A program made the translations under genes and the position numbers. Below the pieces are notes generated by a model that was given only the letters and a program-made list of their open reading frames with translations, searched no databases and had not been told where the DNA came from. From Bradymonadia bacterium (GTDB taxonomy: Bacteria > Myxococcota_A > Bradymonadia > UBA7976 > UBA1532), in NCBI GenBank assembly GCA_046290225.1, contig JBKAGE010000064.1, forward strand, positions 1 through 44,665: a stretch of DNA of 44,665 nucleotides. The letters are read 5' to 3'. Every line of letters begins with the position of its first letter. Position 1 is the first letter of the stretch. Of this stretch, positions 8,000-44,665 are shown piece by piece.

Positions 8000-9241
8000 A
8001 TGGCGCAATCAATGCGTGAACCTGAAATAAACTGGAGGCAGGCAGTGAGCTCATTGGGATTGTTGGCCAAAGTTAATATGGATGGCTCGTTTAGCGCTTC
8101 ATTCGAAGCAGGAGCCCTTGTAAAACATGGCTTCGTTGATTTTTATGAAGAAGATGGAGGCTCTGGCTACCAGCGAAAGGAAACCTCAAGAAATCGACGC
8201 GGGAGAGAAATTGCAAAATACATTGGCAGGTGCCTAAAGGAACAAGTTAAGCCACATCTATTTGAGCTAACCGCGAACGCAAGAAATCAGCCAGATCAAC
8301 ACTTTGAACCTATTGATGAAAAAAAAAGACTTGGTTTTCTAAACCTCTTAGGCTCAGGCAAATGGCTATCAATCATTGATGGTGGGACGAGAATGCTTGG
8401 CATAGAAATGGCGCTTGCAGAAGGCTACATTTCACCTAGCGATACATTTGATGTACGTGTTTATGTAAATCAGGCACCAGCACAAGAAATTGCACATTTT
8501 TTGCTTATAAATGACAAGCAAAAGAGAGTAAGAACAGACTTAAGCCTGAGAGTAGTCCAAAATGCTATGGACGATGATCAGCTATCTGATGATGACAAGC
8601 GCATTCTTCAGACAGTTGTACCTGACACTGATTCCTGGCGCTTTGAAGCAAGCAGGCTTGTGGGAATGCTGAACAGTAATCTTGATAGCCCCTGGCATGG
8701 TCTAATTCAGATGCCCAATGAAGCCGTTACAAAACCCATAAAACACGGTGCGTTCTTCTCAAGCCTGAGGCCTATTCTTTGCAACGAAGACCTTTCAGCA
8801 CTAATTGAAGCAAAGTTCGGCGACTCTGGAAGCAGTACTGAGTTTTTCTATCGTGTTCTAGTTCGTTTCTGGGGAGCCGTAAAAAGTGTCAACAAGCAGG
8901 CTTGGAATGAGCCAAGGACAAATGTTCTCTGGCAAGCGATAGGCGTTAGTTCATGTCATATTGCTCTAAGCCCAATATTGGTCAGCATCCTTAACGCCGA
9001 CAGAGTACTGTTAGGTCAGGACAATTTCGAGTCCATGATAAGAGACTCAACTGTTTCAGACTATGCATACTGGTATAGCAAACCGGGAAAAAAACAACCC
9101 TTAGAATCTTACCCTGGTCAGAAGGGTGATGCTCCGAAGCTCACAGGAGCAGCAAACTATGTTCGCCTAGGCCGAGAGCTTGAAAAACTATGGCGGTCAG
9201 CTCTCCATGCAAAGCCCGCAGAGCAAACCATAACATGGTAG
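8000..9241 (+). CDS. DGQHR-domain (DndB/ParB-like) protein, low GC
   Basis: GYQR, IIDGGTR (variant of DGQHR) and FLLINDKQKRV motifs; AT-rich codons unlike the flanking genes. Confidence 0.75.
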   Translation: MAQSMREPEINWRQAVSSLGLLAKVNMDGSFSASFEAGALVKHGFVDFYEEDGGSGYQRKETSRNRRGREIAKYIGRCLKEQVKPHLFELTANARNQPDQHFEPIDEKKRLGFLNLLGSGKWLSIIDGGTRMLGIEMALAEGYISPSDTFDVRVYVNQAPAQEIAHFLLINDKQKRVRTDLSLRVVQNAMDDDQLSDDDKRILQTVVPDTDSWRFEASRLVGMLNSNLDSPWHGLIQMPNEAVTKPIKHGAFFSSLRPILCNEDLSALIEAKFGDSGSSTEFFYRVLVRFWGAVKSVNKQAWNEPRTNVLWQAIGVSSCHIALSPILVSILNADRVLLGQDNFESMIRDSTVSDYAYWYSKPGKKQPLESYPGQKGDAPKLTGAANYVRLGRELEKLWRSALHAKPAEQTITW

Positions 9242-11628: not shown

Positions 11629-12956
11629 CAGTGGCGCGGGAGGCCCCGGCTTGAAAGCCGGGGAGGGAGAGGGCCGCTCCAAGTTGGCGGAGGGCACAGT
11701 GTATACAGAGAACGAATGAGCAGGTAAGTTGGGCGCATGGACATCAAGCGTGCATACCGTTTCAGGTTTTACCCAAGCAAAGAACAGGCAAAGCAGCTTG
11801 CCCAGACGTTCGGGTGTGTACGCTTCGTCTACAACTGGGCGCTGAAGATGCGCAGTGACGCCTGGAAACATCACCAAGAGAGCATCAGCTACGGCCAGTC
11901 CTCCGCAGCCCTCACGGCCCTCAAGAAGACCCCAGAGCATGCGTGGCTCAAAGACGTAAGCAGCGTACCCTTACAGCAGACGTTGCGCCACCTCACCATA
12001 GCCTTTGGCAACTTCTTCGCCAAGCGGGGGCGCTACCCGAGGTTCAAGCGCAAGCACGGGCCACAGTCAGCGGAGTACACCCCCAGCGCCTTCAAGTGGG
12101 ATGGCCAAACCCTCAAGCTGGCTAAGATGAGGCGCCCCCTCGATGTCCGGTGGTCGCGTCAGGTGCCCAAGGGTGCTCGGGTGACCACGGTGACGGTCTC
12201 CAGAGACTCAGCGGGGCGCTATTTTGTGTCCATGCTCGTCGATGATGTTGTATCGCCCCTGCATAGGGTGAAGGGCCAAGTGGGCATCGACCTGGGGCTA
12301 ACGCACTTCGCCACGTTGTCCACCGGAGAGAAGGTGGACCCCGCAAACGTATTGAGAAAACACGAGAGGAAGCTGGCCCGCTTACAGCGACAGCTGGCCA
12401 GAAAGAAGAAGGGCTCACGCAACAGAGCGAAAGCCCGCACTGAGGTTGCTCGCTTACATGCTCGAATCGCAGACATTCGCAAAGATTTCCTGCATCAACT
12501 CTCCACTCGGCTCGTGCGCGAGAACCAAGTGATTGCCGTGGAGAGCTTGTCCGTGAGCAACATGCTACGTAACCACTGCCTCGCCAAATCTATCGCCGAC
12601 GCCAGCTGGTCGGAGTTCTTGAGGCAGCTTCATTACAAGTGCCTGTGGTACGGGCGCACTCTCGTTGCCATCGACCGCTGGTTTCCCTCCAGCAAGCGAT
12701 GCTCAGAGTGTGGCTACACCCACAAGAAAATGCTGCTCAGTGTCCGGTCTTGGCAGTGCCCCGAATGTGGCGTTACCCACGACCGCGACATCAACGCGTC
12801 CCGCAACGTTTTGGCCGCCGGGCTGGCGGTTTCAGCCTGTGAAGAGCCTGTAAGACCCACCTGCGCTTCGGCGTAACAAGGCACGGCTTGTTGAAACAGG
12901 AAGCGCCCCGAGGTGACTCGGGGAATCCCTGCCCTTCACGGTGGGGAGGATGTCAA
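11629..12956 (+). mobile_element. IS200/IS605-family element, tnpB only (IS1341-like, non-autonomous)
   Basis: Left hairpin CCCCGGCT-TGAA-AGCCGGGG at 11644-11663; right end GAAT-hairpin-GGATGTCAA ending in TCAA at 12956; no tnpA; left junction probably follows TCAT. Confidence 0.85.
11737..12876 (+). CDS. tnpB: RNA-guided endonuclease TnpB
   Basis: AYRFRFYP...FGCVRFVYN N-terminus; RuvC residues in GIDLG, AVESL and DRDINA; CSECG/CPECG zinc finger. Confidence 0.97.
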   Translation: MDIKRAYRFRFYPSKEQAKQLAQTFGCVRFVYNWALKMRSDAWKHHQESISYGQSSAALTALKKTPEHAWLKDVSSVPLQQTLRHLTIAFGNFFAKRGRYPRFKRKHGPQSAEYTPSAFKWDGQTLKLAKMRRPLDVRWSRQVPKGARVTTVTVSRDSAGRYFVSMLVDDVVSPLHRVKGQVGIDLGLTHFATLSTGEKVDPANVLRKHERKLARLQRQLARKKKGSRNRAKARTEVARLHARIADIRKDFLHQLSTRLVRENQVIAVESLSVSNMLRNHCLAKSIADASWSEFLRQLHYKCLWYGRTLVAIDRWFPSSKRCSECGYTHKKMLLSVRSWQCPECGVTHDRDINASRNVLAAGLAVSACEEPVRPTCASA

Positions 12957-32835: not shown

Positions 32836-33810
32836 ATACCCAGTGTATTGCACGAAGCCATCGTGTCGATGTTCACGTCCGACCCGCAACTCACGATAGA
32901 GCTGTGGCAGAGCGCGGGATTGGGGCAGCTGCCCGACTACGACACGCTTCAAGGCGACAAAATCAACCTGTCTCAAGAGACGACGGCGGCATATGACGCC
33001 GACGGTGTGGCCCTGCTCAACTCAGCAGGCACACCACAGCTTGCACTCATCGTGGAGGTGCAGCTCGAGGTCAAAGAGGCCAAGCTCTACAGCTGGCCTG
33101 GCTATGTCGCCTCGGCCCGCTTCAAGAAACGCTGCGACGCCGAAGTACTGGTTGTCACACCATACGCTCGAGTGGCCCGTTGGGCGCGACAGCCCATCCG
33201 CCTCGGGCGAAACAGCTGGGTCACCCCCATCGTCTTCGGCCCTGAAGAGATTCCCGTCACCTCAGACCCGGAGTTCGCGAAAGCCCGACCCGAGATGATG
33301 CTTCTCTCGGCCATCACCCATGGCAAAGGACCCAGCGCAAACGACATCGCCGTGGCTGCGGCGGCCATGGTGTCGTCCCTCGACGAAGACAAACACGACC
33401 TCTACAATGATTTGGTGTTCGCGCACCTCTCACGACGTGCCAAGGAGGCCTTCCAAGACATGTTCAAGCACCCCAAAATCACCGAGCCCTTCTCCGACGA
33501 ATACAAAGCCGTCGTTGCCGAGGCTGCAGCCAGGGCCGCTGACAAGGCCAGAGCAGAGGCCAGAGCAGAGGCCAGAGCAGAGGCCAGAGCAGAGGCCAGA
33601 GCAGAGGCCGAAGCAGCCGCAAAGGCTGCGGCCAGGCACAGCCGCATCGAGATGCAGCGTGAAACCCTGAAGAAACAGATGCGATTCAAGTTCCGAGCCC
33701 TCAGCGAGGACCATGTACGCTTCATCGACGCAGCTGATGCTGACACCCTTGATGGCGCCCTCGAGCGCATCCTCAGCGCTGACACCCCAGAGGGCGTGCT
33801 CCACAGCTGA
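32836..33810 (+). CDS. Rpn-like PD-(D/E)XK nuclease-family protein with C-terminal DUF4351-like domain
   Basis: ADGV...IVEVQL...KLYSWPGY; helical (EARA)n tract; C-terminal KF...LERIL. Start is ATA 32836 or TTG 32848. Confidence 0.75.
   Translation: MPSVLHEAIVSMFTSDPQLTIELWQSAGLGQLPDYDTLQGDKINLSQETTAAYDADGVALLNSAGTPQLALIVEVQLEVKEAKLYSWPGYVASARFKKRCDAEVLVVTPYARVARWARQPIRLGRNSWVTPIVFGPEEIPVTSDPEFAKARPEMMLLSAITHGKGPSANDIAVAAAAMVSSLDEDKHDLYNDLVFAHLSRRAKEAFQDMFKHPKITEPFSDEYKAVVAEAAARAADKARAEARAEARAEARAEARAEAEAAAKAAARHSRIEMQRETLKKQMRFKFRALSEDHVRFIDAADADTLDGALERILSADTPEGVLHS
33545..33609 (+). repeat. Perfect 12-bp tandem repeat AGGCCAGAGCAG x5.4 encoding (EARA)n
   Basis: Directly visible in the sequence. 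Confidence 0.95.
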
Positions 33811-33976
33811 TCGCAGCGCCCCCTGTATATACTGACACAGCCGCGAGATGGCCCTGACGCGCCGACCTCATCGACTCTCCCAATCAATCCAAGCACCTAG
33901 CGATATCGGCCTTGCACCATAAGAGTGGATCGGGGAGGCTTGCCCGAACCCGTATGCCGCTGAGGGACCAGACTGC

Positions 33977-34612
33977 ATGAGCGAGAGCCCCATCGCCCCC
34001 GCCCCGCCCACCGACGTCACCGAGCGTGACGCGCTGACCGCACCGCAGGTGCTCGCCGAGTTGGAGCTGCTCCGTCGCAAGACCGCGCTCTTCGAGCGGA
34101 GGCTCGCCAGCTGGGAAGATGGCCTCGCAGAAGTGCGCAAGCGGCTGCACGTTCTGGAGACCGAACGCAACCCTCAGACCCCTGAGTGGCAGGAGGAGCT
34201 CCGCGATGTACAGCATCGGGTGGGGCGCCTCGAAGCGCGACGGCTCAAAGCCCAGGCCCTCGGTGGTCCTTCCACCACCGCCGAAGCGCCGAGTAGGCGC
34301 TTCGGCGATCGGCCCGAGATCGAAGACACCATCGCCATCACCCGGGCGCGGTGGTCTCCCGAGAACGCCAAGGCCGGTGTCGAGGTCACGTTGAGTGCCA
34401 TCACCGACGGCATCGAAGCCGGTACGGAGATGCTCTTGAAGGTGCACAGCCTCGCCGCTGGCGAAGCCATCGCCGAGGTCAAGGGCAGCAGCAACGGCGA
34501 TCAGCTCACCGCCACCTGGAAGATCCCCAAATCGGTCAAGTCGACCGAGTTGTTCTTCACCGTGGAGCACAAAGGGGCCCGGGCCAAATCTTCGACCCTC
34601 GTCGTCGAGTGA
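33977..34612 (+). CDS. Hypothetical protein: coiled coil plus beta-sandwich; first gene of the spike operon
   Basis: Heptad-rich N-half and beta-rich C-half; 11-bp gap to the next gene. Confidence 0.7.
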   Translation: MSESPIAPAPPTDVTERDALTAPQVLAELELLRRKTALFERRLASWEDGLAEVRKRLHVLETERNPQTPEWQEELRDVQHRVGRLEARRLKAQALGGPSTTAEAPSRRFGDRPEIEDTIAITRARWSPENAKAGVEVTLSAITDGIEAGTEMLLKVHSLAAGEAIAEVKGSSNGDQLTATWKIPKSVKSTELFFTVEHKGARAKSSTLVVE

Positions 34613-34623
34613 AGGGGTAACCA

Positions 34624-35655
34624 GTGGCCAACAGGCTCGTCCGTCGAAATGTGCGCCAGGCCCCTCGGGACCACCGGAACCGCCCCATGGGCGCGGTCAT
34701 CGGCATCGTCACCGACAACAACGATCCTGAGGGCCAGGGCCGGGTGAAGGTCAGGTTCCCGTGGCTCAGCGACGAGACCAGCAGCCACTGGGCCCGCATC
34801 GCCCAGCCCTACGCCGGTGACGATCGCGGCTCGTTCTGGCTGCCGGAGATCGACGACGAGGTCTGTGTCATCTTCGAACGCGGTGACATCAACCACCCCT
34901 ACGTGCTCGGCGGTGTCTGGAACGGCAACGACAAGGTGCCGCCTCCGGGCAACGAGGCCGGGCCCAACGACTTCAAGATCTGGCGCACGCGCAACGCCCA
35001 CCAGATCATCTTCGAAGACACCGAGGGCGCCGAGCGGATCACCATCACCGACGGCCCCAACGAGCGCCACCTCGTGATCGACGTCGCAGCCGACACCATC
35101 ACCCTCACGGCTGATCCCGGCGACATCACCTTCGAAGCCCCTCAAAAGTCGGTGAGCGTCAACTGCGTCACCCTTGAGATCAACGCCACCAACAACAGCA
35201 CGTGGCAGGCCGACACCACCTTCACCGACACCAGCACTGATCGCAGCGAGACCATCGGTGGGCCCGACTCGGTGAGCGTGAAGCAGACCTGGGAGATGTC
35301 GACGAAGCAGGCGAGCATCAGCGCTGGCAGCAGCAGCCTCAGCTTCAAGCGTATGTCGGCCTCGGTGAGCGGCGATCTGCAAATGACCGGCACCGACAAG
35401 ACCATCAAGGGCACCCAGATCGCCCGGAAGTCGGCCCCTGAGACCGCTGACTTCGGCGCCCTTCAGGTCGAAGGCAGCGAGCGGGCGGCCTTCGCCAGCA
35501 ACGGTGACATCAAGATTCAGGCAGGCAACGTGCTCCTGGCCACCAAGGATGGCAGCATCTCTGGTGGCGCCGCCCTCACCCTCAACGGGGGCATGATCAC
35601 CCTCTCGGCCCAGACCGCCTTCTCGGCGAAGGGCGAACTCGTGAAGATCAACTGA
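34624..35655 (+). CDS. gp5/gpV-type spike protein 1 (OB fold plus beta-helix, no gp27 part)
   Basis: GIVTDNNDPEGQGRVKVRFPWL, PEIDDEV and GGVWNG motifs; ends GELVKIN. Confidence 0.88.
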   Translation: MANRLVRRNVRQAPRDHRNRPMGAVIGIVTDNNDPEGQGRVKVRFPWLSDETSSHWARIAQPYAGDDRGSFWLPEIDDEVCVIFERGDINHPYVLGGVWNGNDKVPPPGNEAGPNDFKIWRTRNAHQIIFEDTEGAERITITDGPNERHLVIDVAADTITLTADPGDITFEAPQKSVSVNCVTLEINATNNSTWQADTTFTDTSTDRSETIGGPDSVSVKQTWEMSTKQASISAGSSSLSFKRMSASVSGDLQMTGTDKTIKGTQIARKSAPETADFGALQVEGSERAAFASNGDIKIQAGNVLLATKDGSISGGAALTLNGGMITLSAQTAFSAKGELVKIN

Positions 35656-35665
35656 GGCGCACCGA

Positions 35666-36754
35666 ATGGCTCACGCACAAGGACTCCTCGACGGCATCTA
35701 CACCGGCATCGTCTCGAACAACCACGATCCGTTGAACATGGGGCGGCTCAAGGTCACCTTCCCCTGGACTTCAGATCAGATGGAGTCTCACTGGTGTCGC
35801 CTGGTGCAGCCCTATGCCGGCAACGAGCGAGGCATGTTCTTCATGCCCGAGGTGGGCGACGAAGTGCTGGTGGTCTTCGAGATGGGGGACTTCAACCAGC
35901 CCCTCGTCGTGGGTGGCACTTGGAACGGTGAAGATCCACCGCCCGAGCCCGGTGACCCGGACGGTTCGAACCACCACAAGATCATCGAGACCCGCTCAGG
36001 GCACACCCTGGTCTTCGGCGACGAGCCCGGCGAGGAGTTCATCCAGCTCAAGGACTCGTCGCTGCAGAACATCGTGCGCTGGGACTCGAAGACCGATCAC
36101 ATCAGCATCACCGCCCAGACCGGCGACATCATCATCCGGGCGCCCCAGGGCAGCATCAACTTGCTGGCCAAAGACGTGCGCTTCTCTGCCACCGACTCTT
36201 CGACCCGCACCGTGGGCGGCAACGAGACCATCACCGTGGAGCAGAGCGCCACGGAGATTCAGAGCAACAGCCGTACTCTGAGCGCCAACACCTCGCTCAC
36301 CGGCAGCGCCAAGACCTTCACGTTCGAAGCGAGCAGCAGCATCTCCGCCAGCGGCGGATCAGCCGAGGTGAAGGTGGACGGTCAGACCGGTAACGACCGG
36401 TTCAGCATCAGCGGCAGCACCACCGACACCGCCACCAGCCTCAACATCGAGGCCGAAGTCTTCAGTGAGCAGGTGGAGTCGCGCACCTGGAACGTCGCTG
36501 GCACCGCCAACTTCATCGCCGGCGCCCTGAGCTTCGACGCCAGCGGCAACTTCAGCCTGAATGGTGGCAACCTCACCATCAATTCGAGCGGTTACTTCGC
36601 CCTGCTCGGTGACAAGCTCGCCATGAAGGGCAGCATGATCACCTTCGCCGAGTGCGGGATGATCAACCTCAACCCCACGTCAGAGACGCCACCGCAGCCC
36701 GCCGTGAGCGGTCAATTCATCGCCCAGACCGCCGCTGGCGCCATCCCCAAGTGA
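35666..36754 (+). CDS. gp5/gpV-type spike protein 2
   Basis: GIVSNNHDPLNMGRLKVTFPW, PEVGDEVLV and TRSGH motifs; GMINLNP followed by a short tail. Confidence 0.88.
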   Translation: MAHAQGLLDGIYTGIVSNNHDPLNMGRLKVTFPWTSDQMESHWCRLVQPYAGNERGMFFMPEVGDEVLVVFEMGDFNQPLVVGGTWNGEDPPPEPGDPDGSNHHKIIETRSGHTLVFGDEPGEEFIQLKDSSLQNIVRWDSKTDHISITAQTGDIIIRAPQGSINLLAKDVRFSATDSSTRTVGGNETITVEQSATEIQSNSRTLSANTSLTGSAKTFTFEASSSISASGGSAEVKVDGQTGNDRFSISGSTTDTATSLNIEAEVFSEQVESRTWNVAGTANFIAGALSFDASGNFSLNGGNLTINSSGYFALLGDKLAMKGSMITFAECGMINLNPTSETPPQPAVSGQFIAQTAAGAIPK

Positions 36755-36760
36755 GGCCTG

Positions 36761-37987
36761 ATGCAGCTCCCCGGACCCAACCCGGAGTTCCCCCGGCATT
36801 TCGTCAACCATGACGGCTATCAGGCCCAGTACCTGCCCCAGAATGGTGAAGAGGGGAAGCTCGAGGCCTTCTACTTCGTGGTCAAGCGCAGCTACGACCT
36901 GACCCCGGGCAAGGCCACGCCGGCGATCATGCAGCGCCCGCTGTACACCTCCGACAGGTACTACGACACCGGCCTCGATCCATTGCGCACGCCCATGCGG
37001 TACGAGACCGATCTCATGCCTCCGAAGGTCGCCTGCGACGTCATCGTCAACGGCCACTGCTACGCCCCCGGGGGTGAGGCGGTGCAGGCGATTTGCAGCG
37101 TGCAGGTGGGCGACAACGCCCCCAAGCGGGTGCGGGTCATCGGCGATCGCTCGGTCTGGCAGCCCCGGGGCACTCGACGGGCGGCCATCACCGCAGCCCG
37201 GCCTTTCTCGGTCATGCCCCTGCGTTGGGATTACGCCTACGGCGGCGTCGATCAGCAGTGCGACACCGGCCTGGGCATCTACCCTGCCAACCCTTCTGGG
37301 GTGGGGTTCTGGGCCCAGGCCACCCCCGACGAAGAGGGCAACATCGGGCCGTCGCCTGATCATTACGGGGCCATGCCCAACCTCGAGCACCCCGACATAC
37401 CCATCGAGCTCGACCACATGTTTCATGACCCAGCCTCGTGGAAGAAGGCGCCGCCGCCGTGGTCCATGGGCTGGGTGCCCAAGCACTGGGAGCCACGTGC
37501 GAGCCGCGCCGGCATCGATCCCAAGGTGCGGCCCATGTGGGATCTCTTCTCCAAGTCGCCGCTGCTCAAGAAGTTCAACGTCGATCTGCCAGTGCGGGAG
37601 ATGGATCCGCGGTTCTTCAACGGCGCCCCCCATGGCCAGGTGATCCCGTTCCCTGTGGGCGGCGAGCTCGTGGTGCTCGAGAACATGCACCCCACGGAAC
37701 ACCAGCTGCGGTTTCGGCTGCCGGCAGAGCACCCCCGCATGCGGTGGAGCCTCGGCGGCGACGCGCCTCTGACTCCGGTGAGCCTGAAGATCGACACCAT
37801 CACCATCGAGCCTGATCTCATGGCGATGGATGTCTGCTGGCGGGGCAGACTGCCGGTGCCCACGGGCATGTCCATCGCCAAGATGAAGCACGCCCCCATC
37901 ATCGAGATCGACGGTGAGCTCACCGCGCCGGCCCAGCTGCTCGACTCGGGCTTCCCCATGGAGCTGATCACCGAAGGCAAGCCATGA
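36761..37987 (+). CDS. DUF2169-family effector adaptor/chaperone
   Basis: VVKRSY, DLMPPKVACDVIVNGHCYAP, PLRWDYAYGG, NPSGVG, FFNGAP and DTITIEPD motifs. Confidence 0.88.
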   Translation: MQLPGPNPEFPRHFVNHDGYQAQYLPQNGEEGKLEAFYFVVKRSYDLTPGKATPAIMQRPLYTSDRYYDTGLDPLRTPMRYETDLMPPKVACDVIVNGHCYAPGGEAVQAICSVQVGDNAPKRVRVIGDRSVWQPRGTRRAAITAARPFSVMPLRWDYAYGGVDQQCDTGLGIYPANPSGVGFWAQATPDEEGNIGPSPDHYGAMPNLEHPDIPIELDHMFHDPASWKKAPPPWSMGWVPKHWEPRASRAGIDPKVRPMWDLFSKSPLLKKFNVDLPVREMDPRFFNGAPHGQVIPFPVGGELVVLENMHPTEHQLRFRLPAEHPRMRWSLGGDAPLTPVSLKIDTITIEPDLMAMDVCWRGRLPVPTGMSIAKMKHAPIIEIDGELTAPAQLLDSGFPMELITEGKP

Positions 37988-40900
37988 GCAACGACAGGTT
38001 CAGCACAGGGGCCGGCATCGGCATCGTCACCAACCTCAACGATCCTGAGCAGCAGGGCCGTATTCTGGTGGAGTTCCCCTGGCTCGGCGACTCGGTCTCG
38101 AGCCACTGGTGTCGCTTGAGCACACAGCAGGGCGGCTTCAGCCGTGGCAACTTCATCCGCCCCGAGGTGGGCGACGAAGTGCTGGTGATGTTCGAGATGG
38201 GCGACATCACCCAACCGTGGGTGGTGGGCTGCTTGTGGAACGGCAGCGACGCGCCCCCGGGGCCAGGGAACGGCGACGGCAAGAACGACTTCAAGTTCTT
38301 CGAGAGCCGCTCTGATCACCAGATGATCTTCAACGACGGTGACGACGGCGGCTACATCGAGTTCCACGACTGCAAGAAGAAGCTGCACACCAAGATCGAC
38401 GTGCCAGGGCAGCACATCCACAGCCTCGCCGACACCGGTGAGATCAGCATCAACGCCCCCAACGGTCTGGTGCGGTTCGAGTGCGTGGACTTCAACGTGC
38501 ACAGCACCGAGACCACCACGGTGAACGTAGCCAACAGCCATGGCATCAACGTCACCGGCTCCCGCTCCACGACCGTCAAGAAGCAGAACCTGTCTCAGAA
38601 AGCCGGCAAGAGCCTCTCGGTCACCACGCCCAATATGAGCATGAGCGCCTCGAGCGCCGTGGAGACGAGCACCGGGGGCACCAACATCGAGATCGGCTCC
38701 ACCAACGCCGAGATCAAGCCCACACTCGCCGTAGAGCAGAGCGGCCCGGTGACCCGGAAGATCGGCAGCGCCACCTTCAAGATCACCGACGTGGGCACCG
38801 ATCTCGCGGGCGGTGATCTCGGCGCCGGCCGCTCGGGCCCGCTGACGCTGAACGCCGGCAGCCTGGGCATGCAGCTCAAAGAAGCCTTCGTCACCAAGGT
38901 GGGCGGCAGCAGCGACATCAAGTTCGGCAACATCACCATGAAGGGTGGCACCGTCGCCATGGCCAAAGATGGCGGCGATGGTCAGCAAATCGGCAAGGCC
39001 CAGATGGTCCAGTTCGAAGGCGGACTGGTGAACCTGAACCCCGCGATGTTCACGGGGCCAGTGACCAAGATGGCCGACCTGATGCTGGGCTTCGACGTGC
39101 ACAGCGCCCCGCCCATGCCCTTCGCCTTCGTGTTGCCCATCATCCTGGACACGAAGGAGACGGTGCTCGTCAATGGCTTCACCATGGCGGGTGCAGGGAC
39201 CGCCGCAGTGGGCGTGCACATCCCTGTGGTGTGGCCGCCGCCGCCTTCGCCGCCCTTCTTCGTGCCTGTGCCCATGCCCACCCGGCAGATCCTCGCCGCG
39301 GCGGTGATGGCCATGTTCATGCCCATGGTCATGAGCGTGGGCATGATGGGCGTGAGCATGATCCAACAGGCCGCTCAGGGCGGGAACCCCACCGGCATCT
39401 TGACGGGCATGGACGCCCAGCAATGGCGCGTGCGCCTGATGCCCTACACCGAATCGGTGGGGGCCTTCCTGGCCACCCTCGTGGGTTTGCTGCCCTTCCC
39501 GGCAGCCTCGGGCTCGATCACCCTGGCGGCGCCCTCGGTGCTGGGCCAGGACATGCCCATGGGCTTCACCATGCCCATGCCCTTTGCCAACACCTGCTCC
39601 GAGATCCCCATCATCCCCAACGCCACGGTCATCTCGGTGAGCACGGTGATGGCTGGGGCCTCGATGAAGCAGGTCGCTGCTCAGATGGCCATGCAGGTGG
39701 CGGCCTACGGCCTCACCCGAGCCATGGCGCGGACCCGCATCATGCGCCGCATCGCCGACCCCGTCGACGTGATGAGCGGCGCTCGGGTGGACGAAGACGT
39801 CGACGTCGAGTTGCCCGGGCCCATGCCCCTGAAGCTGGTCCGCAACCACCTGTCGACGGGTGTGAGCATCAAGGACGGTGGGGTGCTCGGCTACGGCAAC
39901 CGCCTCACCTTCGAGCGTCGCCTCACCCTCGACACCCCCGATGGTGCACCCCGGACCTGGACCTACCACACCGACGAGCTGCGCAGCATCCCGCTGCCCT
40001 GCCCCATGGACTTCGGTGAGTGGCACTTCATCAAGGCCGAGCAGCTCGAGATCTGCCGCGCCGATGATCGCCTCTGGGATGTCCGCGACGAGCACGGCAT
40101 CACCTGGCGCTTCCATCGTTGGGATGATCGGGCCTGTCGTCTGGAGTCGTGGTTCGATCGTCACGGCAACACCTGCACGGTGCACTACGACGATCCTGAT
40201 CCGACCCGGGCCACGGCCCTCACCGACAGCACCGGCCGCCGCCTGCGCCTCGATTACGCACGCTTTGGCAAAGGCGCGTCGCAAACACACCGCCTCACCG
40301 ACATCTGGTTCGAGGATCAGAGCGGCGACTGGAAGCCCCACCGCCTGCGCATGTACCGCTATGACGACGCTGGGCAGCTGGTGGCCACCGCTGGCGCCGA
40401 CGATCACCTGACGCGGTACGTGTACGACGAGCACGGTCGGGTGACGCGGCGCCACGAGCCCAACGGCTACATCTGGCACTGGGCCTACGATCGCATGGAT
40501 CGAGTCACCCACGCCTACGGCGAAGACCTTCGTTATTACTACGAGTTCGATTATCAGCCCGGTGCAAGCATGACCATCGTCAAAGACCACACGGGGCGAA
40601 AGACCCTGTACGGCTATGACGAGAACAGCGTGATCAACCGGGTCATCGACGGCGAGGGCGTGCTCCGAGACGCCAAGTACGAAGACAACTGCCTCGTCGA
40701 AGAGAAGACCGGTGAGGAACTGGTCACCACCCACAGCTATGACGATCGCGGTCGCCGAGTGGAGACCATCAAGCCCAACGGCGGCAAGACCACCCGAGTG
40801 TACGACGACACTCATGGTCAGGTGATCCTCGAGGTGAGCCCCATGGGGGCCGAGACCCGCACCACCCTCGATCGTCAAGGCAACCCGATCCGGGTGAAGC

Positions 40901-43497
40901 ACCCTGACGGCGGAGAGACGATGCGCCGCTTCGACGCCCAGGGTCGCGTCGTCGCCGAGTTGCGTCCGGATCAGAGCGAGCACCTCTTCACCTACGACGA
41001 CGCTGGTAACCTCGTAGAGGAGAGCCACGACGGGGTGGTGCAGAAGCACATCTATGATCCGCTGGGCCGGCGTCGCATGACCGACGCCGGCGGTGGGCAA
41101 ATCACCCGCTTCGAGTACGATCGGGCCGGGCGTCAGACCGCTGTGCACTACCCCGACGGTACCTCGGAGTCGAAGGTGTACGACGCCGAGGGGCGCTGCA
41201 TCGAGCACACGGCCTACACCGGAGAGACCTGGCGCTACACCTACGACGGCGCTGGCCGCAAGGTGAAGACCGTGACCCCCGAGGGCCAGGTGCACACACA
41301 CGCCTTCGGCATGAACGACATGTTCAGCGGGCACTCTGATGGAGCCAACCAGGGGTTCCGCTACCGGTACGATGCTGCCGATCGTCTGAGCACACACGAG
41401 ACCACCGACGGTGTGAGCGAGCGCTACAGCTACGATCGCCATGGGCAGCTGGTGCGCATCGATCACAGCGACGGCAGCTTCGTCCGCATCACGCCTGCCC
41501 CTCACGGCGGCCCTTCGGAGCTCACCGCTCGAGACGGCACGCGACAGACGCGCGTCTACAACGAAGACGAGTTCATCGTCGAGGCCCTGGAGTACGCCCC
41601 GGGGGCCAGCCGCCGGCACATTTTCCACCCCGACAAGCCGGTCTCCGGCGAGACGCGGGTGGTCTTCAAGCGGCACCCCGACGGCACCGTGCTCGAAGAG
41701 ATCGGGCCCCATGGCCGTATGCGGTACACCCGCGGCGCCCAGCACAAGATCACGCGGTACAACGTCGACGGCGTGTCGCTGAAGATTCAGCGTGATCCCA
41801 AGGGTCGAGCCGTCTCGGTTCAGGCCCCCGACGGCACCACGTACGACATCGAGTACAAGGGCACCGCTCGGGTCATCAAGCACAGCACCGGCGTCACCAC
41901 GTGGCGCAGCCCCAACAGTTGGGTGTTGCGCAACGAGAAGCAGCGCACCCTGGCCTCGTGCATCGGCGCCGCCGACGACTTCGGCCGCGTGAGCAAGGAG
42001 ACGTTCCGCTACCCCGGCCACATGGGGTACGTGCACAGCCACCGCTACAACAAGGACTCGCGCCTCGACGAGCGATACGACGAGGGCGGGAACCGGCTGC
42101 TGGCGGGCTTCCGGTATGGCGCCGGCCATCAGCTCGTGGCCACCCCCGACGGCGCAGTGCGTCACGATCGCCGTGGCCGCATCGTCAGCCGTCTGAGCCA
42201 CGACGGCGAGCACCGTTACCGCTGGGACGACTTCGGTCGCCTCATCGAGGCCGAGACCCCCGACGGCACGGTGGTGCACTACCGCTACGACGCCATGCAC
42301 CGGCTCGTGGAGCGCATCGAAGATCCCATCGAGGGCTACCCTTCGACGTGGCGCTTCATGTGGTCCGGCGACTTCATGGCCGGTGAGATCCGGCCTGATG
42401 GCACCACGATCCGCTATCTGCGCCTCGATCCCGACGAGCTGGTGCCCTGGGCGGCCTGGGTGAGCGGTGAAGATCCTGCAAAGGGCGAGCTGCACCTTCT
42501 GCAGGCAGACAGCCGCGGCGCCGCCCAGGCGGCCATGCGCCCCGACGGCACGCTCACGTGGTGGGCGGAGTACACCCCTTACGGCGAGGCTCAGGTTCAA
42601 GATCGAGGCCTCGATCTGCGGCTGCGCCTCGCGGGCATGTGGTCCGACCCGCTCACGGGCATCGACTTCAACCGTCACCGCTGGTACGTCCCCGAGTGGG
42701 GCCGCTACCTCTCCCCTGACCCCGCAGGCAGCAAGGGTGGCATCAACCGCTACGCCTACGCCGGCGGTGATCCCATCGGGCGCATCGACCCTCTGGGGCT
42801 GAGCCACACGCCGAACCGGGCGGGCACAGAAGACAGCAACAACAACGTCCAGAGCCGGAACAACGGCGCTGACGCCGACGCACCACCGACGCGCCAGCCC
42901 ACTGCGGGCGACGCCGACGCGCCACCGACGCGCCCCGTCAATGCAGGCGACGACGGCGCCCCGTCGAACCGCGACAACGCGGTGAACGCCCTCGACGGTA
43001 TGCAACAGCGGATGGACGCCGATCCGGCCAACCAGCGCGACTACGGCCCGGCACACAACGATCTCAACAACCGCCTCAACGAAGCAGACGCCGCGGCGAC
43101 TGACCCGGAGTTGCGCCCGCTCGTGGAGGATGACTATCAGCAGATCGCCAGCGAGGCCAACGATCATAACAGCGCCATGGATCGCCGGGCGCCTCAGAAC
43201 AACGACGCCGCGCCGCCCGTCGAGCAGCCGCCTTATGTCAGGGAGAACCGTGTACCCAAGGACAACGAGACGGTCCTCGGGGACAACAGCACCTATCAAC
43301 GCACCAACCTGCGCAACAAGGGCGCCACGGTGTATCGAGACAACGATGGCAACTACTACCATCGCGACACCCTCCACACCGGCAATGGCGCAGAGATCGA
43401 GACCTACAACAGCCAGGGTCAGCACACCGGCACCATCAACCCCGACGGCACCCCGAAGGACGGCCCGATCAAGGGTCGCACCCTCCCTGGGGTGTAA
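37984..43497 (+). CDS. Spike protein 3 fused to PAAR-like domain, DUF6531-like domain, Rhs core and C-terminal toxin
   Basis: gp5 OB motifs at the N-terminus; LVNLNP then GFDVH...VLVNG...HIP...TCS; DPVDVMSG; YD repeats; RYLSPDP...DPIGRIDPLGL. Confidence 0.92.
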   Translation: MSNDRFSTGAGIGIVTNLNDPEQQGRILVEFPWLGDSVSSHWCRLSTQQGGFSRGNFIRPEVGDEVLVMFEMGDITQPWVVGCLWNGSDAPPGPGNGDGKNDFKFFESRSDHQMIFNDGDDGGYIEFHDCKKKLHTKIDVPGQHIHSLADTGEISINAPNGLVRFECVDFNVHSTETTTVNVANSHGINVTGSRSTTVKKQNLSQKAGKSLSVTTPNMSMSASSAVETSTGGTNIEIGSTNAEIKPTLAVEQSGPVTRKIGSATFKITDVGTDLAGGDLGAGRSGPLTLNAGSLGMQLKEAFVTKVGGSSDIKFGNITMKGGTVAMAKDGGDGQQIGKAQMVQFEGGLVNLNPAMFTGPVTKMADLMLGFDVHSAPPMPFAFVLPIILDTKETVLVNGFTMAGAGTAAVGVHIPVVWPPPPSPPFFVPVPMPTRQILAAAVMAMFMPMVMSVGMMGVSMIQQAAQGGNPTGILTGMDAQQWRVRLMPYTESVGAFLATLVGLLPFPAASGSITLAAPSVLGQDMPMGFTMPMPFANTCSEIPIIPNATVISVSTVMAGASMKQVAAQMAMQVAAYGLTRAMARTRIMRRIADPVDVMSGARVDEDVDVELPGPMPLKLVRNHLSTGVSIKDGGVLGYGNRLTFERRLTLDTPDGAPRTWTYHTDELRSIPLPCPMDFGEWHFIKAEQLEICRADDRLWDVRDEHGITWRFHRWDDRACRLESWFDRHGNTCTVHYDDPDPTRATALTDSTGRRLRLDYARFGKGASQTHRLTDIWFEDQSGDWKPHRLRMYRYDDAGQLVATAGADDHLTRYVYDEHGRVTRRHEPNGYIWHWAYDRMDRVTHAYGEDLRYYYEFDYQPGASMTIVKDHTGRKTLYGYDENSVINRVIDGEGVLRDAKYEDNCLVEEKTGEELVTTHSYDDRGRRVETIKPNGGKTTRVYDDTHGQVILEVSPMGAETRTTLDRQGNPIRVKHPDGGETMRRFDAQGRVVAELRPDQSEHLFTYDDAGNLVEESHDGVVQKHIYDPLGRRRMTDAGGGQITRFEYDRAGRQTAVHYPDGTSESKVYDAEGRCIEHTAYTGETWRYTYDGAGRKVKTVTPEGQVHTHAFGMNDMFSGHSDGANQGFRYRYDAADRLSTHETTDGVSERYSYDRHGQLVRIDHSDGSFVRITPAPHGGPSELTARDGTRQTRVYNEDEFIVEALEYAPGASRRHIFHPDKPVSGETRVVFKRHPDGTVLEEIGPHGRMRYTRGAQHKITRYNVDGVSLKIQRDPKGRAVSVQAPDGTTYDIEYKGTARVIKHSTGVTTWRSPNSWVLRNEKQRTLASCIGAADDFGRVSKETFRYPGHMGYVHSHRYNKDSRLDERYDEGGNRLLAGFRYGAGHQLVATPDGAVRHDRRGRIVSRLSHDGEHRYRWDDFGRLIEAETPDGTVVHYRYDAMHRLVERIEDPIEGYPSTWRFMWSGDFMAGEIRPDGTTIRYLRLDPDELVPWAAWVSGEDPAKGELHLLQADSRGAAQAAMRPDGTLTWWAEYTPYGEAQVQDRGLDLRLRLAGMWSDPLTGIDFNRHRWYVPEWGRYLSPDPAGSKGGINRYAYAGGDPIGRIDPLGLSHTPNRAGTEDSNNNVQSRNNGADADAPPTRQPTAGDADAPPTRPVNAGDDGAPSNRDNAVNALDGMQQRMDADPANQRDYGPAHNDLNNRLNEADAAATDPELRPLVEDDYQQIASEANDHNSAMDRRAPQNNDAAPPVEQPPYVRENRVPKDNETVLGDNSTYQRTNLRNKGATVYRDNDGNYYHRDTLHTGNGAEIETYNSQGQHTGTINPDGTPKDGPIKGRTLPGV
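42802..43494 (+). other. Rhs C-terminal toxin region ending in a colicin E3-like (Cytotoxic/BECR) RNase-like domain
   Basis: Follows the DPLGL cleavage motif (42787-42801); YYHRDTLH...EIETYNSQGQHTGTINPDG resembles the colicin E3 D-x-x-H...E-x-Y...G-x-H-x-G pattern. Confidence 0.6.
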
Positions 43498-43500
43498 GAC

Positions 43501-44379
43501 ATGAAGAAATACACTCTCCCTGCTGATCAATACTTCCTGCGTCGTGTGCCTTCTGCAGATGGCACCCCATCGCTGATGCTCAACGGCGAGCCCGGCACCC
43601 TGGCCCGCTTCGACGTGGCGCAGGGCAACCAGATCGAGCGGCTGAAGCACCCGCCAGAGCTGCGCCGTGATGGCGGCCTGGTCACCAACCTGATGTTCAA
43701 CGTCGCCGGTGACTGCATCGTCACCGACGACGAGGGTGAGCGCTGCTGGATGCACCACGACAGCCGCTGGAGCGCTCCGAGCCCGCTGCCCAACGCCAAC
43801 ACGCTCACCGATCTCTGTTATCTGTGGACCGAAGACACGCTGTATCTGCGCAAGAACTTCGGGGTGACCTATTTCATCTGGCGCGACGACGCGGGCCGCC
43901 TACAGCCAAGCTTCGACCGCTATGCGGCGATCCGGGTGCGCAAAGATGCCCCGAGCTGGCTCAAGGCCGTGGAGAGCTTCCCCAGCATGGGGTGTCAGGT
44001 GCACCGCACGTATCAAGACACATCCGACCTGGTTTACTGTGTCTATGACGCATCAAAGCCACGGGTGGGCTATGCGTCCTGGGGCGACGCCGCGCTTGAT
44101 TGGTCGGTGGCCCACCCCCGTAAATGCCTTCGCCTCGCCGGGTGCTCTGACTGGCTCTTCAGCATCGTCGACGCCGGCTCGGGCACGACGGAGATCTTGG
44201 CGCACCATCGAGACGGCGCTCAGATCACCCTCACCTCACCCACTGGCAAGCGTTTCTTCGACCTCGAGACCATCATCACGGAGAGCTGGTCCGGCCTCGC
44301 CGCCCTCGCGGTGCCAGAGGCCAGCAGCGTCGACGTGCTCGTGCTCTGGACCCTCGACGACTTGAACGCCATGCGCTGA
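43501..44379 (+). CDS. Putative immunity protein, family unrecognised
   Basis: Separated from the Rhs stop by a 3-bp gap and is the last gene before a terminator; positional inference only. Confidence 0.55.
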   Translation: MKKYTLPADQYFLRRVPSADGTPSLMLNGEPGTLARFDVAQGNQIERLKHPPELRRDGGLVTNLMFNVAGDCIVTDDEGERCWMHHDSRWSAPSPLPNANTLTDLCYLWTEDTLYLRKNFGVTYFIWRDDAGRLQPSFDRYAAIRVRKDAPSWLKAVESFPSMGCQVHRTYQDTSDLVYCVYDASKPRVGYASWGDAALDWSVAHPRKCLRLAGCSDWLFSIVDAGSGTTEILAHHRDGAQITLTSPTGKRFFDLETIITESWSGLAALAVPEASSVDVLVLWTLDDLNAMR

Positions 44380-44415
44380 TCTCCCTTCTACCTCTACAAT
44401 GAGACTTCGAAACAC

Positions 44416-44443
44416 AAAAGCCCCCTCGAAATGAGGGGGCTTT
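44416..44443. terminator. Intrinsic terminator, probably bidirectional
   Basis: AAAAGCCCCCTC-GAAAT-GAGGGGGCTTT between convergent genes. Confidence 0.85.
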
Positions 44444-44478
44444 CAGGTGTCGAGCCTTCAGCGACTCAGGCGTTCAAC

Positions 44479-44664
44479 TCAGAGGCCGCCGACGGGGATG
44501 CCACTGCAGACGTTGGCCTGGTGGGAGGTCTGGGTGGGGTTCTGAGAAACGAACTGGCAGGCACCGACGATGGTGTCGTTCATGCTCTGGACGCCGGCGG
44601 CGAAGGTGGCGTCACGGCCGACGGTGTTGTCCTTGCCGAGGGTGACGTCGGCCTGGAGGGTGAC
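44479..44664 (-). CDS. 3' end of a gene running off the window; hexapeptide (LbH)-like periodicity
   Basis: Reads VTLQADVTLGKDNTVGRDATFAAGV...GIPVGGL* with high GC3. Confidence 0.55.
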   Translation of the reverse strand, partial: VTLQADVTLGKDNTVGRDATFAAGVQSMNDTIVGACQFVSQNPTQTSHQANVCSGIPVGGL

Positions 44665-44665
44665 G

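Follow-up and report, generated by a model that had tools for sequence, protein, structure and literature searches.

The DNA analysed here is a stretch of 44,665 nucleotides (the window; contig JBKAGE010000064.1 of assembly GCA_046290225.1, positions 1 to 44,665) from a Bradymonadia bacterium, a myxobacterium-like organism that dwells in soil or sea. At window positions 33977-44379 it carries a plus-strand operon of six genes, three of which encode spike proteins related to phage gpV, named chains A, B and C below. The genes encode, in this order, a 211-amino acid (aa) protein, chain A (343 aa), chain B (362 aa), a DUF2169 protein (408 aa), chain C (1837 aa) and a product of 292 aa, and they are separated by gaps of 11, 10, 6, -4 and 3 bp. 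An earlier note on this DNA had placed the three gpV genes and the DUF2169 gene in one operon and had proposed that the three chains form a heterotrimeric spike loaded with a single toxin. The membership of these four genes is borne out, but the flanking 211-aa and 292-aa genes had been overlooked.

Each of the three chains opens with a gpV-like OB fold that is followed by a putative beta-helix, and all three scored above the 23.8-bit cut-off of Pfam Phage_base_V. Chain A (34624-35655, plus strand) has its OB fold at residues 26-99 (108.8 bits, E 1.8e-31). The OB fold of chain B (35666-36754, plus strand) spans residues 12-86 (100 bits, E 9.7e-29), and that of chain C, in a spike module formed by residues 1-352 (37984-39039, plus strand), spans residues 12-85 (78.2 bits, E 6.2e-22). 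The pairwise identity between the chains is 32-36%. According to the earlier note each chain runs for about 320-340 aa from a GIV motif to a terminal strand, and the measured lengths are 317 aa for A (G27-N343), 323 aa for B (G14-N336) and 340 aa for C (G13-N352). The chain ends are also as it had described them: A stops at ELVKIN, B reaches GMINLN at N336 and adds a tail of 26 aa, and C continues beyond GLVNLN-PAM. In alignments of orthologues all three chains terminate on a homologous strand, an alignment of A, B and C with each other being ambiguous in the distal helix, where MAFFT misplaced the terminal strand.

The length of the helix was compared using the distance between an invariant His of the OB fold and the last strand (alignments A5-A7, containing 20 A, 22 B and 18 C rows). 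This distance is 217-222 aa in A, 219-225 aa in B and 230-235 aa in C, and 241 aa in the C chain of this genome. Thus, A and B are matched in length, and C is consistently about 12 aa longer. On a separate point, 17 of 21 A orthologues end in a Cys on the terminal helix strand, and the A chain studied here and its nearest relative end in Asn. In these orthologues the tip Cys, beside the PAAR domain, might take part in metal binding or in a disulfide.

Using Pfam and our own hidden Markov models (HMMs), Phage_base_V domains were found in the 8.58-Mb genome in A, B and C only. Phage_GPD, the gp27-like half of VgrG, was not found by Pfam in any of the three chains; these match VgrG models over the final third only, with scores under the cut-offs. 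PHROG baseplate hub and spike families matched the post-OB region of B, and weak matches (E 6e-4) to NCBIfam TIGR01644 (phage_P2_V) were obtained for A and B.

The whole ORF (open reading frame) of chain C (37984-43497, plus strand; 1837 aa) comprises the gpV OB fold, the beta-helix, a PAAR domain, an Rhs cage and a toxin. A "PAAR-like" module had been noticed in this chain before. Pfam gave no PAAR hit in C at E <=0.01 (the cut-off of PAAR_motif, PF05488, is 27 bits) and neither PAAR nor Tox-PAAR-like above cut-off anywhere in the genome, and PF05488 matched two of 17 C orthologues at E 0.0048, below its cut-off. A profile built from C residues 344-576 and 16 orthologues (A3) was then run over 1.84 billion representatives and found 58 proteins of three kinds. 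The first is the fused spike-PAAR family itself. The second consists of unfused Rhs proteins of 1380-1460 aa together with proteins of just 250-330 aa, where the domain begins at residue 3, and the third of small proteins of about 100-135 aa (E 1e-6 to 1e-3). A Pfam scan of 30 of the 58 proteins placed PAAR_motif above its cut-off in 10 and below it in six. Alignments with canonical PAARs cover the two halves of the domain but not the middle piece of about 95 aa, which these proteins lack; their first residues align to residue 356 of C, right after ...NLNP.

Structure prediction gave the same picture. An AlphaFold2 model of C 354-590 based on 42 rows (pLDDT 77.8, pTM 0.67) folds into two beta halves around a helical insert; it was used in place of a model of C 331-700 based on 17 rows, which reached a pLDDT of just 36.6. 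A Foldseek search of the PDB with the model returned no match at E <=0.001. In an exhaustive VIA-align comparison with 48,161 chains, ranks 1-6 were all PAAR proteins, with Z values from 11.4 to 6.0. The best was the E. coli PAAR protein c1882 (4jiw_D; Z 11.4, root-mean-square deviation 2.4, 93 of 93 residues aligned), and it was followed by chain ZA of the T4 baseplate (5iv5; Z 9.7), phage P1 (Z 9.1), phiKZ gp163.1 (Z 8.5), Pvc10 (Z 6.9) and 9jg9_B (Z 6.0). A search of PDB sequences with the A2 profile found Rhs cores only and no PAAR entry, and an Atlas feature search with C 356-600 yielded scores of at most 0.86, which are leads only.

Residues 354-560 of C (39043-39663, plus strand) are thus, on profile homology to bona fide PAARs and on the predicted fold, a split PAAR domain with halves at about 355-411 and 507-560 and a helical hydrophobic insert at about 412-506. 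Within the insert lies the most hydrophobic 19-mer in the whole chain (436-454; Kyte-Doolittle mean 2.08). His373, His412 and Cys538 are invariant among the 18 fused orthologues; when canonical PAARs are added (43 rows in all), His412 stays invariant, and the conservation of His373 and of Cys538 is 90% or more. PAAR structures have a His/Cys metal site near the tip. The domain begins about three residues past the last helix strand (...NLN-PAM-F356), and because of this short gap three such PAARs on the tip of one homotrimer would have almost no slack.

The PAAR domain is followed by a DUF6531 plug and an Rhs/YD-repeat cage, which together occupy residues 592-1602 (39757-42789, plus strand) up to a DPLGL autocleavage motif at residue 1602. 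The assignments are supported by DUF6531 at 592-669 (E 6.8e-12), by RHS_repeat (E 1.6e-52, 175.4 bits) and by Rhs_assc_core TIGR03696 (56.7 bits; cut-off 32.5), and Rhs cores in the PDB match the A2 profile at E 1.5e-7. The Pfam domains and the PAAR fold match together identify C as a covalent spike-PAAR-Rhs fusion, as had been proposed. It has the hallmarks of an Rhs/YD polymorphic toxin: YD repeats, a core with DPxGL and a variable C-terminal toxin. The toxin (residues 1607-1837; 42802-43497, plus strand) is 231 aa long and consists of a low-complexity linker and an end domain of about 100 aa. The last 105 aa gave a Pfam Cytotoxic (PF09000) match of 18.5 bits (E 0.0027), which is below the cut-off of 22 and a lead only; from its sequence the end domain is possibly a colicin-E3-like rRNase. 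The toxin region is unrelated between C orthologues.

Spike proteins act as part of a larger machine, and the genome contains one candidate. In this genome, which is 99.38% complete, TssC, Hcp and TssF of a type VI secretion system (T6SS) were not found. Its only Phage_GPD hub and its two sheath genes lie in one contractile injection system (CIS) cluster at about 193.6-213 kb of contig C82 (genome G000). Its gene order is Pvc16-like cap, two successive sheath-tube pairs, a gene of 1549 aa, the LysM tube initiator, the hub, a protein with a double zinc ribbon, gp25, J, P2-I and more genes, and the tubes are of the gp19 type. Neither an OB fold nor a PAAR was found in the cluster: the hub is a protein of 364 aa with Phage_GPD only, and the position of the spike, after the hub, is occupied by the double zinc-ribbon protein. 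When our own HMMs were run over all six-frame ORFs of the genome, gpV-like sequences appeared only in A, B and C, and PAAR-like sequences only in C.

The hub and the three chains fit together on the NCBIfam model VgrG_rel. Of its 547 positions, the hub matches 5-349, A 367-538, B 374-529 and C 376-530, each match being below the whole-protein cut-off, as halves would be. Because the hub and A, B and C match complementary parts of the model, the operon supplies the missing spike half of a VgrG-related protein. Judging by the genes of the genome, the spike operon belongs to a CIS of the Afp/PVC type (antifeeding prophage and Photorhabdus virulence cassette) with a spike-less hub, and not to a T6SS. 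Whether it is more precisely the detached central spike of the sole CIS of the genome, encoded on another contig, is a matter on which we regard the chances as evenly balanced.

Some further features of the C82 cluster (about 193.6-221 kb) were observed. The 1549-aa gene between tube and tube initiator has no family, the double zinc-ribbon protein, which is encoded between hub and gp25, has 218 aa, the P2-I homologue carries a PASTA domain, and two FHA proteins, one of them with a VWA domain, are encoded downstream. No AAA+ ATPase was seen in the approximately 7.6 kb that were fetched upstream of the cluster.

We next consider the distribution of the three chains. A large collection contained 18 other proteins with the architecture of C, one of which is labelled Myxococcota. 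Residues 1-600 of C matched 22 of the 28 genomes of the family (20 of them strongly), and none of three other genomes of the order matched. A hub orthologue is present in exactly the 20 family genomes that have A/B/C-like genes and in none of the other eight. TssC is found in 15 of the 28, being present in 13 of the 20 genomes with the triad and in two of the eight without it. Since the family genomes are kin, these co-occurrence counts are not independent.

The gene order was studied in 33 loci from relatives within the family (that on contig G014:C409 is locus L023). The order 211-aa gene, A, B, DUF2169 is preserved, and in 14 loci, from 12 genomes, the next gene downstream is C. C is located elsewhere in G007, G016 (four copies), G017 and G018, as is one extra copy in G006; its position is undecided in four genomes owing to contig ends, the contigs of G009 and G014 ending before any C is visible. 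All 20 genomes keep A and B in a 1:1 ratio. The two PAAR-less partners that the earlier note had expected to accompany the fusion are conserved indeed, as all 18 genomes with C or a fragment of C also hold A and B.

Its expectation that the three chains fall into separate clades also held. In a tree of 66 OB-helix modules (three partial rows dropped), rooted with two VgrG-like proteins of 660-673 aa as outgroup, the support by the Shimodaira-Hasegawa-like approximate likelihood ratio test (SH-aLRT) was 89 for A, 100 for B and 88 for C. The A and B labels were taken from best BLAST hits and agree with the gene order in every locus. Each of the three clades splits into the same two sets of genomes. 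Genomes G006, G011 and G012 contain two module sets each and no extra single chains; the strong hub matches number one in G012 and one in G011, which has two remote ones in addition. Genome G016 contains one A/B pair and four C genes (L050, L051, L052). Over the first 600 alignment columns these are 100% identical, over the next 100 columns their identity is 79%, in the cage it is 18-50%, and the four toxins are unrelated. Such a pattern points to recombination or homogenisation that is limited to the spike-PAAR module.

Paired gpV paralogs also occur outside the family. In a sample of 401 genomes of the phylum, a gpV-like match was obtained in 139, and coverage extended through the PAAR domain in this family only. 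Two adjacent short gpV genes are present in many other families of the phylum. Five of the 12 distant loci fetched were annotated with Pfam. In G305 the order is hub-gpV(239)-gpV(255)-gp25-J-I inside a CIS cluster. In G262 and G169, from two other families of the phylum, the hub and a gpV of about 240 aa are followed by another gpV, which is extended by 500 to more than 700 aa; these extended proteins measure 760 aa in G262 and at least 523 aa in G169 (L075, 7400-9679, minus strand; L077, 9838-11406, plus strand). The split-PAAR profile finds no PAAR in them and their extensions have no Pfam family. They were therefore ruled out as instances of the same fusion, and the extensions may represent a different kind of spike-borne cargo.

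The unfused relative is the distant locus of G276 (L070, G276:C773, 625-17170), which reads gpV(352)-gpV(352)-DUF2169(805)-Rhs(1459), the DUF2169 protein being double the usual length. The N-terminus of its Rhs protein is the same split PAAR in unfused form (profile E 1.7e-51), and the genome has exactly two Phage_base_V domains. The locus of G276 and the tandem pairs elsewhere indicate that paired paralogs and the combination of DUF2169 with a split-PAAR-Rhs protein are older than the fusion. The earlier note had explained the PAAR-less paralogs as an answer to the competition of three PAARs for one tip; this explanation fails, as G276 has two gpVs beside an unfused split-PAAR-Rhs protein. 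Near this locus we also observed a divergently transcribed gene for a 1719-aa protein with an eCIS_core (PF13699) domain.

The other three genes of the operon were analysed as well. The DUF2169 gene (36761-37987, plus strand) encodes a 408-aa protein that matches PF09937 at E 7.1e-63 (213.2 bits against a cut-off of 25), and its 3' end overlaps with the first 4 bp of C. It is located behind B in most related loci, also where C sits elsewhere, and its product is a candidate chaperone or adaptor for the split PAAR of C. The first gene of the operon (33977-34612, plus strand; stop 11 bp before A) encodes the 211-aa protein, which has an N-terminal coiled coil and a C-terminal beta-rich domain, and most related loci have an orthologue immediately upstream of A. 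Pfam, PHROG and NCBIfam assigned it to no family, and the Ig-like domains on hub, spike or PAAR proteins that an Atlas structure search returned, with TM scores of 0.40-0.51, are no more than leads. The 292-aa ORF (43501-44379, plus strand) starts 3 bp after C. It has no Pfam or NCBIfam family and no second copy in the genome, and its position makes it a candidate immunity gene. A promoter scan of 33600-44665 detected no sigma-70-like sites, and the eight terminator-like sites found there (4.8 expected) are not informative.

Several elements of this architecture have counterparts in known systems. The closest in layout is the VgrG-Rhs "megaspike" of Advenella mimigardefordensis (AHG65567, PDB 8QJA), which, in the accessible part of its description, has in common with chain C a spike-Rhs fusion, a C-terminal toxin and a plug before the cage. 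As presented in the same part, megaspikes contain a complete VgrG (gp27 and gp5 halves), belong to a T6SS and are read as homotrimers with three Rhs, and a PAAR between spike and cage is not mentioned there, whereas chain C has a PAAR fold at this place. In the operon studied here, by contrast, only the gp5/gpV half is fused, two PAAR-less paralogs accompany the fusion, and the host machine is of the Afp/PVC type. PAAR-Rhs effectors of the T6SS (PDB 7Q97, 7PQ5, 8QJB-D; with Eag or DUF chaperones) share the order PAAR, DUF6531 plug, Rhs, DPxGL, toxin and immunity gene, as well as hydrophobic segments beside the PAAR and an adjacent dedicated chaperone gene. Their PAARs, however, are free N-terminal domains docking on a separate trimer of VgrG, whereas the PAAR of C is fused to a spike chain and carries the insert of about 95 aa. 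The unfused form of this PAAR exists in relatives, in G276 and in the Rhs proteins of 1380-1460 aa.

Heterotrimeric spikes have been discussed for the T6SS (VgrG1/2/3 of Vibrio cholerae; Aeromonas dhakensis), and the consulted passages of PMC8668125 describe paralogous chains, some C-terminally extended, for which mixing is proposed. Those VgrGs are full-length, their mixing is, according to these passages, facultative and debated, and their PAAR is separate; here, three ancient and co-inherited groups are found, one of which has the sole PAAR. By contrast, Serratia VgrG1 and VgrG2 do not mix according to the part of PMC4924876 that deals with them.

The operon and its presumed machine share with Afp/PVC (Afp8/Pvc8 spike and PAAR Pvc10, PDB 6P22) the cap, sheaths, tubes, tube initiator, hub and gp25/J/P2-I homologues, and the model of the split PAAR matches Pvc10 with the Z of 6.9 given above. 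In Afp/PVC themselves, a single protein combines hub and spike, and the cluster has a small gene of its own for the PAAR. Payloads of these particles are loaded via N-terminal signals, as stated in the consulted section of PMC9054023. The system described here differs in having a lone hub, a spike divided over three paralogs at another locus and a payload in the form of a spike-fused Rhs. In phage P2, as here, hub (gpD) and OB-fold spike (gpV) are separate polypeptides. The single gpV of P2 makes a homotrimer that has an apex of its own, and the phage has neither a PAAR fusion nor a toxin.

The DUF2169 gene has a parallel in Tde2 of Agrobacterium tumefaciens, where a DUF2169 adaptor gene is found just upstream of an effector with a divergent, DUF4150 PAAR-like domain, near spike genes (parts of PMC7324665). 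For the PAAR_E subtype a DUF2169 neighbour is reported in >75% of cases in the portion of PMC8651086 consulted. The known adaptor cases in these sources all concern the T6SS, and the literature on DUF2169 with contractile injection is T6SS-centred by title and abstract; here, DUF2169 stays with A-B, even where C is elsewhere, in T6SS-less genomes. Each element is thus already known: gpV/gp5 spikes, PAAR-Rhs, VgrG-Rhs fusions, DUF2169 adaptors, mixed VgrG spikes and Afp/PVC. The earlier note knew of no described system with this architecture, and in titles, abstracts and some passages of the literature we did not find the combination of a gpV::split-PAAR::Rhs triple fusion, two PAAR-less paralogs, a spike-less Afp/PVC hub in trans and a T6SS-less genome; the related ideas of VgrG-Rhs fusions and of heterotrimers, however, have already been published.

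The analysis establishes the domain anatomy, the PAAR fold (on a predicted model), the spike-less hub, that the genome has no T6SS, and that all parts are conserved and occur together. The most economical reading of the operon is that A, B and C assemble into a 1:1:1 heterotrimer. Both the co-assembly and the ratio are inferred, and we would place this reading at or slightly below an even balance. The OB folds of the three chains would seat in the trimeric hub, and their beta-helices would intertwine to form one pseudo-threefold spike with a flush end. The tip of this spike would be capped by the PAAR fused to C, and each particle would carry one PAAR and one Rhs cage with one polymorphic toxin. 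The DUF2169 protein, and perhaps the 211-aa protein, would serve as assembly chaperones that shield the hydrophobic insert of the PAAR, and the product of the 292-aa gene would protect the producer. These chaperone roles, like the activity of the toxin, are putative.

Co-assembly is favored by the presence in the genome of a single hub, of only three spike genes and of a sole PAAR, which is in C. It is also favored by the co-inheritance of A, B and C, of which whole sets and not single chains are duplicated, and by the single A/B pair of G016, which serves several C genes with an identical docking module. Further points in its favor are the narrow range of helix lengths, the shared terminal strand on which the chains stop flush and the near-missing linker ahead of the PAAR. 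In addition, the complex of A95-343, B82-340 and C81-565 was predicted from our own alignments. The three runs gave ipSAE values of 0.71, 0.23 and 0.43 (median 0.43), and the best of three controls scored 0.14; the pLDDT of the partners was at least 61 and the runs shared at least 55% of their contacts, which was graded as weak support. The mark applied is reached by 116 of 157 solved complexes and by two of 215 mismatched pairs, and at scores of 0.60 or less by just 18 of the 157 solved complexes and by both of the mismatches that pass.

A number of results weigh against a 1:1:1 heterotrimer. The predicted complex does not discriminate between a heterotrimer, a homotrimer and a 2:1 mix, and its passing of the mark may be an echo of solved spike-PAAR complexes. 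The helix of C exceeds those of A and B by about 12 aa in general and by 23 aa in this genome. Because of G276 and the tandem pairs in CIS clusters, gpV pairs need no PAAR fusion as an explanation. In G007 the A, B and C genes are at three separate places. The co-occurrence counts may reflect only one or two gains or losses. The T6SS sheath gene is present in 13 of the 20 triad genomes, and use by a T6SS is possible there. Finally, the Advenella VgrG-Rhs fusion has a size of 691 kDa and is read as a homotrimer with three Rhs in the available part of its report (bioRxiv 10.1101/2024.02.26.582050), and on account of this size three cages per spike are physically possible.

Two other stoichiometries were weighed, each of which we regard as unlikely. 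The first is facultative mixing, in which A and B would form a basic spike (e.g. 2:1) and C would swap in when a toxin is to be delivered, such that A2B, AB2, ABC, A2C and other trimers would coexist, in the way proposed for the several VgrGs of some T6SSs. This agrees with the wide spread and greater age of the two-paralog state, with the C genes that may sit away from A-B and vary in copy number from one to four, and with the discussion of heterotrimeric VgrG spikes for V. cholerae and A. dhakensis in the passages of PMC8668125 cited above. On the other hand, within the family C equals A and B in age and conservation, and all 18 genomes with adequate data hold all three chains. Facultative mixing also overlaps with the 1:1:1 heterotrimer.

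The second, similarly improbable, is that the chains form separate homotrimers: C3 would be a "megaspike" with three Rhs cages and at most one PAAR on the tip, and A3 and B3 would be spikes that are free of cargo or carry other cargo. Spikes of gp5, gpV and VgrG are homotrimers by default, and tandem gpV pairs exist without a fused PAAR. In the part of its preprint referred to above (bioRxiv 10.1101/2024.02.26.582050), the Advenella fusion behaves as a trimer with three Rhs. With the PAAR of C only about three residues past the helix, however, the tip would have little room for two undocked PAARs with their cages, and A3 and B3 would be left without a PAAR, since the sole one of the genome is in C. 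Further points against homotrimers are the 1:1 retention of A and B in all 20 genomes, the duplication of full A-B-C sets and the common homologous end strand of all three chains.

A third possibility, that the operon is an orphan vgrG-like island serving a T6SS, we regard as very improbable and as contradicted for this genome, which lacks TssC, Hcp and TssF at 99.4% completeness: DUF2169 and PAAR-Rhs are known mainly from T6SS loci (consulted portion of PMC8651086) and TssC matches above cut-off in the 13 triad genomes mentioned, but TssC is missing from seven of the 20, two TssC genomes have no triad, A, B and C are without the gp27-like half of VgrG, and several T6SS-bearing relatives have a separate VgrG-like frame of about 500-1000 aa (673 aa in G022, 659 aa in G023).

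Returning to the heterotrimer, we tentatively propose its stricter form: an obligate assembly of three ancient paralogs, of which one bears the sole PAAR and the Rhs toxin, delivering one interchangeable warhead per shot, with the gpV pairs of other families representing an ancestral 2:1 form.

Some features in the remainder of the window were recorded in passing. Directly upstream of the operon is a 320-aa ORF (32848-33810, plus strand) without Pfam or NCBIfam family, which has an (AEAR)n-like repeat in its C-terminal part and of which other contigs of the genome carry at least 10 paralogs (27-67% identity); the family may be mobile or recombination-related. A 1-kb stretch of low G+C content (0.44 versus about 0.65) at 8000-9241 (plus strand) contains a 413-aa ORF with a DndB match of 27.2 bits, below the cut-off of 29.1, and may be an acquired defence-type island. 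An IS605 OrfB/TnpB-like gene with HTH_OrfB_IS605, OrfB_IS605 and Cas12f1-like TNB domains is located at 11737-12876 (plus strand), and a 1350-aa ORF without Pfam family at 3716-7768 (plus strand).

The spikes of phage tails, pyocins, T6SS and extracellular contractile injection systems (eCIS) are treated as homotrimers with one PAAR cap, and the transition from a threefold spike to a single asymmetric cap or cargo is usually solved by a separate PAAR protein. If the heterotrimer is correct, three dedicated chains, one of them with cap and toxin, would be a different solution, in which the stoichiometry of the cargo is fixed genetically. It would be the first CIS in which the symmetry of the spike is broken by design, and the first system of the Afp/PVC type armed with an Rhs via a spike fusion. 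The range of Afp/PVC-type cargo would then extend, beyond lumen-loaded payloads, to a spike-fused Rhs of about 200 kDa, which is relevant for the re-engineering of these particles toward protein delivery, and DUF2169 would have a role outside the T6SS. Whatever the stoichiometry is, the eCIS "VgrG-related" protein is divided here between a hub gene and spike genes encoded in trans, which provides a clear and testable annotation rule for this clade.

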